Origin: Flavobacterium sp.
GTDB taxonomy: Bacteria > Bacteroidota > Bacteroidia > Flavobacteriales > Flavobacteriaceae
NCBI RefSeq assembly: GCF_040379285.1
Contig: NZ_JBEILJ010000007.1
Span: 1,134 to 65,133 of the forward strand
Reading direction: 5' to 3'
Length of the DNA stretch: 64,000 nucleotides
Part shown: positions 60,954 through 64,000 of the stretch, one piece after another
Position numbering within the stretch: the first letter of the stretch is position 1
How the letters are laid out: the number at the start of each line of letters is the position of its first letter
The notes under the pieces: generated by a model
Told to the model about the DNA's origin: nothing
Databases searched by the model: none
The model's input: the letters and a program-made list of their open reading frames with translations, nothing else
Translations under genes and position numbers: made by a program

Positions 60954-61460
60954 ATGAAAAAAATAATCCCTTTCGCTGTGATTTTACTTTCCCTCGTATC
61001 CTGTGCGCAAAGCACCCCTCCCAAGCAATTTTCGGAGGCTACAAAACAAGAAAAAGTAACCGATTTACAAGGCCAAGAATTATCGTTTGGTGACTTACTC
61101 AAACGCCACCGTGGGAAAATTACGGTTATCGAAATCTGGGCGTCTTGGTGCGGCGACTGTGTCAAAGCCATGCCTAAAGTCAAAGAAATGCAAGCGGCAC
61201 ATCCCGATGTTGATTATGTATTTATCTCCATGGATAAAGGGCTTGACAAATGGAAAGCGGGGATTGAAAAGCACCAACTCACGGGTGATCAATACTGGGT
61301 GAACGATGAAAAAGGCATGAAAGGAAGTTTTGGAAAATCGATTGATTTGGACTGGATTCCACGCTACATCGTCTTGGATGCTGAAGGAAATATTGTAACC
61401 TATCGGGCGATTGAAACCGACTTTGAACAACTTAATGCTACTTTAAAAACGTTGAAATAA
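60954..61460 (+). CDS. TlpA-family thiol-disulfide oxidoreductase lipoprotein
   Basis: Lipobox LVSC; WASWCGDC and IPRYIVLD. Confidence 0.92.
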   Translation: MKKIIPFAVILLSLVSCAQSTPPKQFSEATKQEKVTDLQGQELSFGDLLKRHRGKITVIEIWASWCGDCVKAMPKVKEMQAAHPDVDYVFISMDKGLDKWKAGIEKHQLTGDQYWVNDEKGMKGSFGKSIDLDWIPRYIVLDAEGNIVTYRAIETDFEQLNATLKTLK

Positions 61461-62209
61461 TGAGAAGAAAAATTGTTGCCGGCAACTGGAAAATGCATAA
61501 AAATGCTGAAGAAACAGAAGATTTCCTAAACGAATTAATTGCCGCGCTTCCCGACGATATTGAGGCCGAAGTGATTGTTGCGCCTCCCTTTGTGAATTTA
61601 GCTTCGGCGGCCGATCATGTTGAATTTACTCCGATTACGGTAGCCGCACAAAATATGCATCAAGCAGAAAGCGGTGCCTATACCGGCGAAATTTCGGCTG
61701 CCATGTTAAAAAGCATTGGGGTAAATACGGTGATTTTAGGTCATTCGGAGCGTCGTGCGTACTTCAACGAAACGGATGCCGCCTTGGCGAATAAAGTAGA
61801 TACGGCTTTGAAACACGATATGACCGTTATTTTTTGTTTTGGAGAAGAATTGAAAGACCGTCAAAACGGACAACATTTTAACGTCGTTGAAAATCAGTTA
61901 CGCGATGGGCTGTTCCATATTGACGATAAGAACTGGGCGCAAATTGTCTTGGCTTACGAACCCGTTTGGGCGATTGGCACAGGAGAAACGGCGACCCCAG
62001 ATCAAGCTCAAGAAATGCATGAATTCATTCGCAACACTCTACGATCACGCTACCCTCAGGTGGCGGAAGATGTTTCGATTTTGTATGGCGGTAGTGTAAA
62101 ACCCGACAATGCGCGTGAAATATTCTCCAAACCCGATGTCGATGGTGGTTTGATTGGTGGCGCGGCTTTGAAAGTGGCCGATTTTGTGGCGATTGCGGAA
62201 GCGATTTAG
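61460..62209 (+). CDS. tpiA: Triose-phosphate isomerase
   Basis: AGNWKM, GHSERR, AYEPVWAIGTG, YGGSV and LIGGA. Confidence 0.98.
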   Translation: MRRKIVAGNWKMHKNAEETEDFLNELIAALPDDIEAEVIVAPPFVNLASAADHVEFTPITVAAQNMHQAESGAYTGEISAAMLKSIGVNTVILGHSERRAYFNETDAALANKVDTALKHDMTVIFCFGEELKDRQNGQHFNVVENQLRDGLFHIDDKNWAQIVLAYEPVWAIGTGETATPDQAQEMHEFIRNTLRSRYPQVAEDVSILYGGSVKPDNAREIFSKPDVDGGLIGGAALKVADFVAIAEAI

Positions 62210-62239
62210 CCCCCTAACCCCAAAAGGGGGAAAGAGATG

Positions 62240-62287
62240 CTGAGACGCTAAGACGCTGAGCTGCTGAGCCGCTGAGCTCCTGAGCAA
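62240..62287 (+). repeat. Orphan array of 6 x 8-mer CT(G/A)AGnnn
   Basis: CTGAGACG CTAAGACG CTGAGCTG CTGAGCCG CTGAGCTC CTGAGCAA. Confidence 0.88.
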
Positions 62288-62338
62288 TCGTCAACGACAA
62301 ATCTCCCCTAGACTCCTACATTAAGCACCACGCAACGG

Positions 62339-62455
62339 CTATGCGAACTATGTTACTATGTGGTTTAAAAAAACATAACGCATCTTTCAAGTTTACTACA
62401 CAGTAAAATAAGGTAGTAATTAAATTTAACCACATAGGGACATAGGTGTATATAG
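62339..62455. repeat. Inverted pair of CTATG/CATAG mini-arrays
   Basis: CTATGTTACTATGTGGTT (62348-62365) versus AACCACATAGGGACATAG (62428-62445), 16/18 complementary. Confidence 0.8.
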
Positions 62456-62458
62456 GTG

Positions 62459-62498
62459 TTGAGCCGCTGAGCTCCTGAGACGCTGAGCTCCTGAGCAA
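62459..62498 (+). repeat. Orphan array of 5 x 8-mer (C/T)TGAGnnn
   Basis: TTGAGCCG CTGAGCTC CTGAGACG CTGAGCTC CTGAGCAA; shares CTGAGCTCCTGAGCAATCGT with the 62240 array. Confidence 0.88.
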
Positions 62499-62768
62499 TC
62501 GTTGCGTGAAGATAGGGATGAGATTTCTCCTAACGTCGAAAGGACATCAGGACGTTGTATTTTTTTAGCTAGCTAAAAACTTTACCCATAAGTTGTGCTT
62601 CCAAAGAAGGAGAAATCCCATAAGGTTGGGGGCGGATTTGCTAAAAAAGTATAGCTTGTTTCTTGAAACTTTAGACTCCAAACGGGGGGATTCCTTTTTT
62701 ATCCTTTTCGCTGGTTTTCGCTGGTTTTCGACTATGATATTGGGTTTTCGATTTCATGGCTTTTTCAT

Positions 62769-62823
62769 GGACTATCTAGGGAGTATCTATGGAGTATGTA
62801 TGGAGTATCTAGGGCGTATCCCT
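62769..62823 (+). repeat. Five tandem 11-mers, consensus GGAGTATCTA(G/T)
   Basis: GGACTATCTAG GGAGTATCTAT GGAGTATGTAT GGAGTATCTAG GGCGTATCCCT. Confidence 0.8.
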
Positions 62824-63210
62824 ACCCCACCCCATAATTTGGGACAAAACTAGCGTTTGCGTTCAGTATTTGGTATACATGAAAGCTACCGCAACACTGT
62901 TTTTTTTTTTTACGCTTTTGATGACCGAAGCAACCCCTTACGTTGCCTTTTTTGGAAAGCGCTGTACCTCCCCAAAAAGAACTCCTTTTTTACGCCCCTT
63001 AACGGAAAACCGTACCCTCCCCACTTTTCTTTGCTGTAATTTTATGGCTTGGTGGAAAAAAACCGACTAGCCGCCGGAAAAATACCTGTTTTTGCGGGGA
63101 AAAATCCTGCGGAAAATTGGGAGAGAATGTTTAATTTGCGGGGGGATAATTTGATTAGGTGTGTAAAGCTGTCAGGCGTCAGCTTTGAAAAAAAACTATA
63201 AAAAATAATT

Positions 63211-63819
63211 ATGAGAAAATTTTTATTCTTTTTTACGACTTTTAGTCTACTATCTATACCGCTACTTGGACAAGAAAATAAATCTGTTAAAGATACAATT
63301 ACTTCAAGTATTGATAATCGAGAACATTTTACATTTTTAGATATTCCTATAAATGGACCAATAAAACAATTCGTTAAAAAACTAGAAAATAAAAACTTCA
63401 AACTTGAGGATATAACAGATGTTGACGCTGTCCTTACCGGTAGATTTACTGGCGAAAAAGTTCAACTCTTAGTTCAAGGTAAAAAAGAAACTGTAGTAAG
63501 TGTAATTGTAATTTTACCCGAAAGAGAATCCTTATTTGATGCAACATCACGGTACACCTATATAAAATCCAAACTGATTCAGAAATACGGTGAACCTGAA
63601 ATAATTGAAGAAAAATTTGAAGAGTTTAATAATAAAACTTATGAAGATGAAATAAAAGCACTTAAAGATGGATTATATATTTTTGAGAGTCATTTTTTGA
63701 CCAAAAATGGCAATGGTATGATTAGGTTAAAAATAGAATCGGATTTGAGTATATTGATTGATTATGTTGATACAAAAAATTATAAATTGTTGAGTAAAGA
63801 TGCATTTGAAGAATACTAA
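63211..63819 (+). CDS. AT-rich secreted hypothetical protein (candidate gene cassette)
   Basis: Signal peptide; HFTFLDIPINGPIKQFVKKL...LIQKYGEP; visibly more AT-rich than the backbone genes. Confidence 0.8.
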   Translation: MRKFLFFFTTFSLLSIPLLGQENKSVKDTITSSIDNREHFTFLDIPINGPIKQFVKKLENKNFKLEDITDVDAVLTGRFTGEKVQLLVQGKKETVVSVIVILPERESLFDATSRYTYIKSKLIQKYGEPEIIEEKFEEFNNKTYEDEIKALKDGLYIFESHFLTKNGNGMIRLKIESDLSILIDYVDTKNYKLLSKDAFEEY

Positions 63820-63844
63820 ATTGATTAAAAATAATAAGCCGAAT

Positions 63845-63939
63845 GCCTCACAGCAGTATAGTAAAATGGTGGGTTAAGGGCTAAATTGAAAGTAAGCAAT
63901 TATAAATCAGTCGATTAGTAAATACCCAAAACGTTAAGC
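63845..63939 (+). mobile_element. attC-like recombination site (degenerate)
   Basis: Starts GCCTCAC (RYYYAAC-like) 25 nt after the stop and ends AAAAC-GTTAAGC (GTTRRRY). Confidence 0.55.
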
Positions 63940-63980
63940 ACAATCATTCCAAGAACATTACCTATAAACTGATTTTAAAT

Positions 63981-64000
63981 ATGGATAACTTAAAGAAAAA
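63981..64000 (+). CDS. Probable start of the next cassette gene (MDNLKK..., truncated by the window)
   Basis: ATG 41 nt after GTTAAGC; open to the window edge. Confidence 0.35.

Follow-up and report, generated by a model that had tools for sequence, protein, structure and literature searches.

Clusters of attC sites that lack an integrase are known as CALINs, a term that applies where two or more attC sites stand near each other (Cury et al., 2016; PMC4889954). A related arrangement, rAID-1, was described in gut Bacteroidales. It consists of a XerD-like recombinase gene at the 5' end, followed by co-oriented low-GC genes with integron-like intergenic repeats (Ross et al., 2019; 10.1101/471110). 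The criteria are a recombinase at least 44% identical to BF9343_RS08045 and at least two co-oriented downstream genes with a G+C (GC) content of at most 41%, and the cargo consists of orphan immunity genes. Integrases can also insert cassettes at secondary genomic sites, as reported for IntI-based systems (10.1101/2022.09.11.507474). Surveys of integrons have come up nearly empty in Bacteroidota; in Bacteroidetes, IntegronFinder 2.0 revealed only In0 elements and one Salinibacter integron (10.1101/2022.02.28.482270). Here, we discuss a stretch of 64,000 nucleotides from a Flavobacterium sp. (the window; contig C7, positions 1134-65133), in which positions 63172-63933 probably constitute, as judged from sequence comparison, one gene cassette of a putative integron-like gene-capture system that is common in Flavobacterium. 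Full-text literature searches found no report of a system of this kind in Flavobacteriia.

The genome of 2.6 Mb is 99% complete and divided over 101 contigs. At ~63180 of the window, the GC content drops from ~44% to 28-30%, after which it stays near 33% up to the end of the contig (genome mean 41%). An initial annotation of the window had proposed an integron-like cassette at this border, and the motifs that it named were all found where it had placed them. The parts of the cassette are the following:

63171-63177, + strand: left junction with the degenerate R'-type core GTCAGGC, which is GTTAGGC in both homologous cassettes (L077 and L042)
63172-63210, + strand: 5' leader of the cassette
63211-63819, + strand: cassette open reading frame (ORF) of 202 aa, with a hydrophobic, signal-peptide-like N-terminus and a two-lobed alpha/beta domain
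63845-63851, + strand: R'' core GCCTCAC, which is GCCTAAC in both homologues
63846-63941, + strand: decayed attC-like site, in which the L'' arm and the left loop are kept, the L' arm is gone and the R' core GTTAAGC stands at 63933-63939

Homologues of the 202-aa protein are rare (only 19 among 5.8 billion proteins), and the closest ones, which are 92% (L077) and 83% (L042) identical, are both bracketed by intact attC-like sites. When scored with R1, a covariance model of such sites that is described below, the sites on both sides reach 58.5 and 66.1 bits in L077, and those flanking the homologue in L043/L042 reach 109 and 103 bits. More distant homologues have one adjoining R1 site each, with scores of 135.6 bits in L074/L075 and 70.5 bits in L044. 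Alignments showed that the homology between the window and both L077 and L042 begins exactly at the GT[T/C]AGGC core and stops just past R''. The identities, region by region, are:

Left of 63171: 34% to L077, 33% to L042
From the core to the ATG (the 5' leader): 75% to L077, 65% to L042
ORF, at the DNA level: 94% to L077, 86% to L042
From the stop codon to R'': 88% to L077, 91% to L042
Inside the element, after R'': 41% to L077, 39% to L042

Since the steps in identity coincide with the cores, the borders are of the cassette type with a cut at G|TT, and the predicted crossover at the left core lies between G63171 and T63172. In L077, the L' arm of the intact upstream attC-like site (the one scoring 58.5 bits) abuts the left core, whereas unrelated DNA of native composition is found at that position in the window. 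With homologues that lie between intact sites and homology that runs from the G|TT core to just past R'', the proposal of an integron-like cassette is well founded.

Apart from two substitutions, R'' and the 5' core of the same cassette are reverse complements. This complementarity, in the form GTTAGGC/GCCTAAC, is common to the copies in the window, L077, and L042, and the two cores in the window have one substitution each, at the two positions that are due to pair. The 7-mers by themselves are without weight: GTTRRRY is not enriched in the window (128 occurrences vs. 147 ± 12 expected), and GCCTGAC with at most one mismatch is found three times in 4.4 kb, where 4.7 matches are expected. Their meaning comes from the homologous cassettes and from the match to the covariance model.

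In its intact form, the putative system has a Xer-like tyrosine recombinase at the head of an array in which low-GC cassettes of one gene each share one orientation; every cassette is closed by an imperfect palindrome of 129-144 bp built like an attC site. On L042, which is a metagenome contig, a gene for a tyrosine recombinase of 347 aa is followed by ten small, unrelated genes on the same strand, including those for an esterase, several DUFs, and a ParD/ParE pair, and seven copies of an element of ~140 bp lie between the genes of the array. The ParD/ParE pair (L042 10648-11556) makes up a single cassette, and the attC-like sites on its two sides share 97% identity over 99 nt. Such near-identity of neighbouring sites in L042 suggests homogenisation, which would explain why homologous cassettes have differing attC interiors.

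R1 is based on ten intact sites, of which seven come from L042 and three from an array of the congener G011. In all ten, an AAC close to the 5' end (R'') and an ACGTT close to the 3' end (R') are invariant. Folded as single-stranded DNA, most of them show a terminal stem of 5-10 bp, a one-sided bulge of 4 nt, a stem of ~18 bp in which individual bases are bulged out, and a loop that varies between sites. The folding z-scores of the ten sites were between -2.7 and -3.7 for five, between -1.0 and -1.5 for four, and -0.42 for the remaining one. In their alignment, 84% of the cells are paired, and shifting the partners by 1-3 columns lowers this share to 24-44%; both-sided changes are present in 9 of the 19 pairs, and the covariation score is 0.30 vs. 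at most 0.10 after the shift. R1 finds 31 sites with E values of at most 2e-6 in the arrays examined. Sites were detected in 14 of 15 congeners, in numbers ranging from 1 to at least 47 per genome and at many separate loci. No site was found in nine genomes from other families of the order, and, because of this absence of sites outside the family, the model is considered genus-tuned. The array in congener G010 (C1:885170-1101202) is very large, with at least 47 attC-like matches on the plus strand over ~210 kb. Its recombinase gene is on the minus strand, i.e., divergent from the cassettes and not co-oriented with them.

The site that closes the cassette in the window differs from these intact sites. 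With 17.4-17.5 bits, positions 63846-63941 give the best R1 match in the window and in the contig (E value 0.0026 in 4.4 kb with filters off and 0.21 in 345 kb). In this alignment, R'', the L'' arm, the left loop (AAAATGGTGGGTTAAGGGCTAAATTGAAAG), and CAAAACGTTAAGC agree with the consensus, and all pairs of the L box are flagged as broken. The left arm, AGCAGTATAGTAAAATGGTGGG, is located at 63852-63873, and ACCCAAAAC directly precedes the R' core. The site is ~95 bp long vs. 129-144 bp in the intact sites, and it does not fold any better than shuffled sequence (z-scores of -0.14, +0.61, and +0.18). Thus, the folding and palindrome feature of attC sites is present in the related arrays and absent from the window site. 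The R' core GTTAAGC is exact, whereas R'' is one mismatch away from the core motif, with CAC in place of the AAC triplet that is invariant in all ten model sites. A BLAST search with the element (63820-63980) found no other copy in its own genome. The absence of the L' arm from the alignment, the reduced length and the lack of folding agree with the earlier suggestion that the attC site is internally deleted. Because the site would no longer be folded and cut, the cassette would be fixed in place. The claim that it is locked there is probably correct, as a reasonable inference and not as a demonstration.

Several observations weigh against the interpretation of the locus as a cassette of such a system. 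On its own, the match of the window site is weak, as the 17 bits in R1 correspond to an E value of ~1.6 genome-wide and nhmmer gave an E value of 1.5. In an alternative alignment made with MAFFT, AAAACGTTAAGC aligns to the inner loop motif CCGAAAGTTTAGGC of intact sites, which would mean that the 3' end is truncated and that there is no internal deletion. The internal-deletion alignment is preferred because CAAAACGTTA-GC agrees with the intact R' end at 12 of 13 positions; the L stem cannot form under either alignment. Furthermore, no second convincing attC site follows, so that the "array" consists of one cassette, and the recombinase in the same genome is represented by only a fragment of 105 codons at a contig edge. 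Finally, the available sequence stops 2437 bases behind the window, before the low-GC island reaches its right border.

Considering both sides, the locus is probably a stranded and decayed cassette, a relic without an adjacent recombinase, with further decayed or truncated cassettes behind it. The cassette may have arrived as part of an array fragment, or a recombinase may have inserted it at a secondary GTT site. The low-GC DNA behind it would represent further imports, i.e., an orphan ORF and a C-protein/methylase/PstI-type restriction module that is shortened at its 5' end.

The 202-aa gene was not found in any of the 40 relatives searched. Compared with the 92% and 83% identical homologues, the dN/dS ratio of the ORF is 0.21; therefore, the gene appears to be kept under purifying selection, and it is probably still in use. 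Scans of the locus for sigma-70-type promoters gave results at chance level, with the promoter types of Bacteroidota being outside the coverage of the tool.

Other pieces of the system are present in the same genome. A strong attC-like site (C73:8223-8359; 72.5 bits) follows an ORF of 81 aa close to a contig end; its R' contains ACGAT in place of ACGTT. The surrounding region (C73:6900-8802) shows a second switch from native to low GC content, from ~44% to 24-29%, with no recombinase gene beside it. A weaker attC-like site of 30 bits is located at C92:494-632. The initial annotation had named in advance what would speak against the cassette, namely the lack of similar elements elsewhere in the genome and a fixed position of the gene next to tpiA in relatives; what was found, the sites on C73 and C92 and the absence of the gene from 40 relatives, does not refute the proposal. 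On the minus strand of C98 (315-1), codons 1-105 of a gene of the array-heading recombinase family were detected, cut by the start of the contig and 51% identical at the protein level to that of L042. This fragment is of native composition, and housekeeping genes (TatD-like and ThiF-like) are located on its other side. Thus, the integron-like system is represented in the genome itself, and the assembly breaks at the arrays. It is noted that 23 contig ends are of low GC content and that the shortest contig is 2.6 kb, which resembles a length cut-off.

No IntI is encoded in the genome. The best match to TIGR02249 scores 72 bits against a cut-off of 265, which is sub-threshold as in all 14 control genomes, and tblastn and the family hidden Markov model found no recombinase remnant in the 1-kb spacer to the left of the cassette (62210-63170). 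Hence, the statement that no integrase is in view holds for IntI genome-wide and for this spacer. The accompanying idea that a remote, non-IntI recombinase mobilised the cassette receives indirect support from the fragment on C98, which belongs to the array-heading family, a family without the IntI insertion.

The array-heading recombinase is found in 14 of 24 congeners, and its best named match (82%) is in a metagenome-assembled genome (MAG) of a Flavobacterium sp. In all six loci with sequence past the recombinase gene, the array starts 0.7-1.5 kb behind this gene on the same strand. The protein passes the NCBIfam model NF040815 ("site-specific tyrosine recombinase/integron integrase") with 230.5 bits at a cut-off of 220, but fails the IntI model TIGR02249 (204.6 bits vs. 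the cut-off of 265), the match being split in two pieces. Its best relatives in the PDB are archaeal XerA proteins, which align continuously (148.9 bits vs. 113.8 for IntI). In the alignment with IntI4 (2a3v), residues 78-247 of the query correspond to residues 9-178 of the chain and residues 273-345 to residues 246-318. In between, where residues 248-272 stand opposite residues 179-245 of the chain, ~42 residues of IntI4, located at the IntI-specific insertion, have no counterpart. The recombinase also has ~75 extra residues at its N-terminus, which are conserved in the family. Outside the genus, a MAG of Bacteroidales (L082) encodes a recombinase that is 51% identical to the array-heading family, and an R1 site lies downstream of it.

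On the contig of the window, every ORF from 63211 up to the contig end is on the + strand, with a GC content of 28-33%. Behind the cassette, the window contains:

63981-64000, + strand: start of the next imported ORF, with its ATG at 63981

The contig extends 2437 bases beyond the window, and the stretch was read as L001, the coordinates of which are those of the window minus 62000. Two overlapping frames, 63981-64193 (70 aa) and 64160-64519 (119 aa), are probably one frameshifted gene for a membrane protein, with the break inside the second hydrophobic helix; among 5.8 billion proteins, there is no homologue besides the sequence itself. The two frames may represent a second cassette. Nine bp past their stop codon, GTGCATAAC is found, eight of nine bases of which are the reverse complement of GTTAAGCAC, the 5' end of that unit. 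A second attC site at ~64528-64661 was considered and rejected, as it scores only 6 bits in R1 and has a folding z-score of -0.22; the core complementarity at eight of nine bases remains as a hint. From ~64734 (L001 2734-4437), a C-protein with a helix-turn-helix and an Eco57I-domain N6-adenine methylase are encoded; the contig end truncates the methylase at residue 411 of 532. Elsewhere, this restriction-modification (R-M) module continues with a BsuBI/PstI-type endonuclease, a protein of 1264 aa, and a small ORF. The C-protein/methylase/endonuclease module is 77-92% identical across distant Bacteroidota (L158, L160, and L161). In three other contexts, it ends in GTTATGCCC and GGGCATAAC, which are exact reverse complements, and in L158 an attC-like site of 36.9 bits follows it. 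The module looks like a very large cassette of 7 kb. The copy in the window's contig is without part of the 5' leader.

The left flank, outside the cassette, comprises:

61460-62209, + strand: tpiA (ORF of 249 aa), native housekeeping gene that is the last ahead of the imported DNA
62210-63170, no strand: non-coding spacer of native composition (GC 38-52%) with many short repeats

Orthologues of tpiA are present in 25 of 26 relatives, with 73-82% identity across most of the genus. In the nearest relative, a gene for a 315-aa protein directly follows tpiA. An attempt to rebuild the right border of the island by means of this gene failed, as the best match in G000 lies inside C19 in an orientation that is incompatible with joining the contig end. 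A search for the empty site in 150 congeners, with the left flank as the query, yielded matches to short dispersed repeats only, and no tRNA, tmRNA, or Rfam family was found at the border of the island. R1 detected no attC sites in the tpiA regions of eight relatives, among which tpiA is thus not a conserved array site. Of the "chromosomal array at tpiA" that had been proposed, one solid cassette therefore stands, whereas the second site has core complementarity only and the position at tpiA is not shared.

The data on the two flanks bear on whether the cassette was inserted here at all. The work on secondary-site insertion describes a similar situation, with a single cassette outside any att site, core sequence at the junction, and a left side devoid of attC-like sequence. 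At the locus in the window, in contrast, the right flank is foreign as well, so the locus does not look like a simple insertion of a single cassette into native sequence. The cassette could instead have been a passenger on a larger imported segment that also carried the orphan ORF and the R-M module. Such a segment could have entered by homologous recombination after transformation or conjugation, or it could be a rearranged former array. Consistent with this possibility, the left flank has native and the right flank low GC content, implying that the two were not contiguous before; moreover, the R-M module is itself a traveller, and tpiA regions of relatives are devoid of attC sites. However, on the left the foreign DNA begins precisely at the G|TT core, as expected of a junction made by a recombinase, and stray loci with one or a few cassettes are frequent in the genus. 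On balance, the passenger scenario is a serious alternative, but we consider it rather unlikely.

Compared with integrons and CALINs, the system in Flavobacterium shares the organization of the cassette, with one ORF and one folded, imperfectly palindromic site, as well as the RYYYAAC and GTTRRRY cores with a G|TT crossover and a 5' end that is complementary to its own R''. Other common features are the co-oriented arrays, the presence of toxin-antitoxin and R-M systems in the cargo, and the stray sites without recombinase that are scattered in the chromosome. In contrast to integrons, the array recombinase is nearer to archaeal XerA than to IntI, lacks the IntI insertion, and possesses an extra N-terminal domain of ~75 aa. 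Also different are the orientation of the recombinase gene, which in six loci is the same as that of the cassettes, and the R-L spacer, which is a one-sided bulge of 4 nt. Because the defining integrase feature was tested for and found to be absent, the system is not filed as an integron. The locus in the window deviates from both integrons and CALINs in having a single recognizable site, which is defective. This weak site (63846-63941) is accompanied by a second candidate (~64528-64661) that is suggested by core complementarity at eight of nine bases only.

The closest published system is rAID-1, which has in common the recombinase heading co-oriented, short, low-GC genes, the repetitive intergenic sequences, and the occurrence in the phylum Bacteroidota. 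At the window locus, at least two co-oriented genes with a GC content of at most 41% are indeed present, with no recombinase adjacent. rAID-1 was described only for Bacteroidales and as arrays of immunity genes, whereas the cargo in the window is not recognizable as such; in the parts of the literature on it that were consulted, the sites of rAID-1 are not analyzed as folded attC, and stray single cassettes are not described. It could nevertheless be proposed that the locus is a fragment of a rAID-type defence array and that the 202-aa protein is an orphan immunity protein or inhibitor against a periplasm-acting toxin of competitors. The relatives of the cassette do reside in arrays that are headed by a recombinase and consist of co-oriented, low-GC genes separated by repeated sites, which is how rAID-1 is defined in Bacteroidales (10.1101/471110), and the N-terminus of the 202-aa protein resembles a signal peptide. 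An AlphaFold2 model of this protein, with a mean pLDDT of 80 and block means of 82-95 for residues 41-200, displays weak similarities to PepSY, BLIP-like, and DUF2874 two-lobed proteins. However, no Pfam or PADLOC family was assigned to the protein, Foldseek found no fold match in the PDB at E values below 0.01, and the neighbouring cassettes in the related array are of mixed function, including the esterase, ParDE, and several DUFs. Hence, an origin from such a defence array is improbable, and an inhibitor or immunity role of the 202-aa protein is a guess.

In a broader scenario, Flavobacterium, and more widely the Bacteroidota, may run an integron lineage of their own, in which a Xer-like recombinase without the IntI insertion would capture folded attC-type cassettes and of which rAID-1 would be one branch; we regard the arguments for and against this scenario as evenly balanced. 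Because standard integron surveys are keyed on IntI, they would miss such a lineage. If the scenario is true, the locus would show the end of the life cycle of a cassette, which would have dispersed from the platform and lost its L' arm, and the gene of which would have been domesticated under purifying selection. A system whose sites follow the structural rules of attC while its recombinase lacks the IntI hallmark also bears on the question of whether the IntI insertion is truly needed to recombine folded single-stranded sites. For that question, the intact site in L077 and the decayed site in the window constitute a natural substrate pair, located behind cassette genes that are 94% identical in DNA. 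The locus itself is a modest example of cassettes turning into ordinary chromosomal genes, and the system behind it is the interesting part.

It could also be argued that the locus is an ordinary, horizontally acquired low-GC island in which GTCAGGC, GCCTCAC, and GTTAAGC match the cores by chance. Such islands are common in this genome, as judged from its low-GC contig ends, the 7-mers occur at or under chance frequency, and the element is unique by BLAST and does not fold. Yet, strong attC-like sites flank the closest homologues, the homology ends exactly at the two cores, and the left half of the element agrees with the family consensus, which makes a coincidence highly improbable. Equally hard to uphold is the notion that the site is still active and that a shortened attC of ~95 bp suffices to excise the cassette: the site retains an R'' core with an AAC-like element (GCCTCAC) and an R' core with ACGTT (AAAACGTTAAGC), and attC lengths in integrons are known to vary widely, but pairing of the L box is impossible, the folding energy is at the level of shuffled sequences, and R'' has CAC in an otherwise invariant triplet.

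The spacer between tpiA and the cassette has further features of its own. Two blocks of 8-bp tandem repeats of the CTGAG type (62230-62500 and 62756-62820) flank an AT-rich piece of 170 bp, which contains an inverted repeat of its own. An 11-bp tandem repeat (GGAGTATCTAT-like) is found in the same region, and short copies of it are present in ten other genomes of the genus. On the minus strand, a weak R1 match (62526-62633; 13.3 bits; E value 0.023 in 4.4 kb) overlies the inverted pair GAGATTTCTCCT and AGGAGAAATCCC and ends in TCCTAAC and GTTGGGG; this match may be coincidental or the remnant of an older attC site in the spacer. At the transition from the spacer to the cassette (63165-63186), a hairpin of 7 bp, AAAGCTG-N8-CAGCTTT, spans the left junction (minus-strand z-score of -3.2). 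The left arm of the hairpin is part of the native flank, whereas the right arm is cassette sequence. Behind the recombinase genes of L042 and L060, there are likewise hairpins with a GTT in them.

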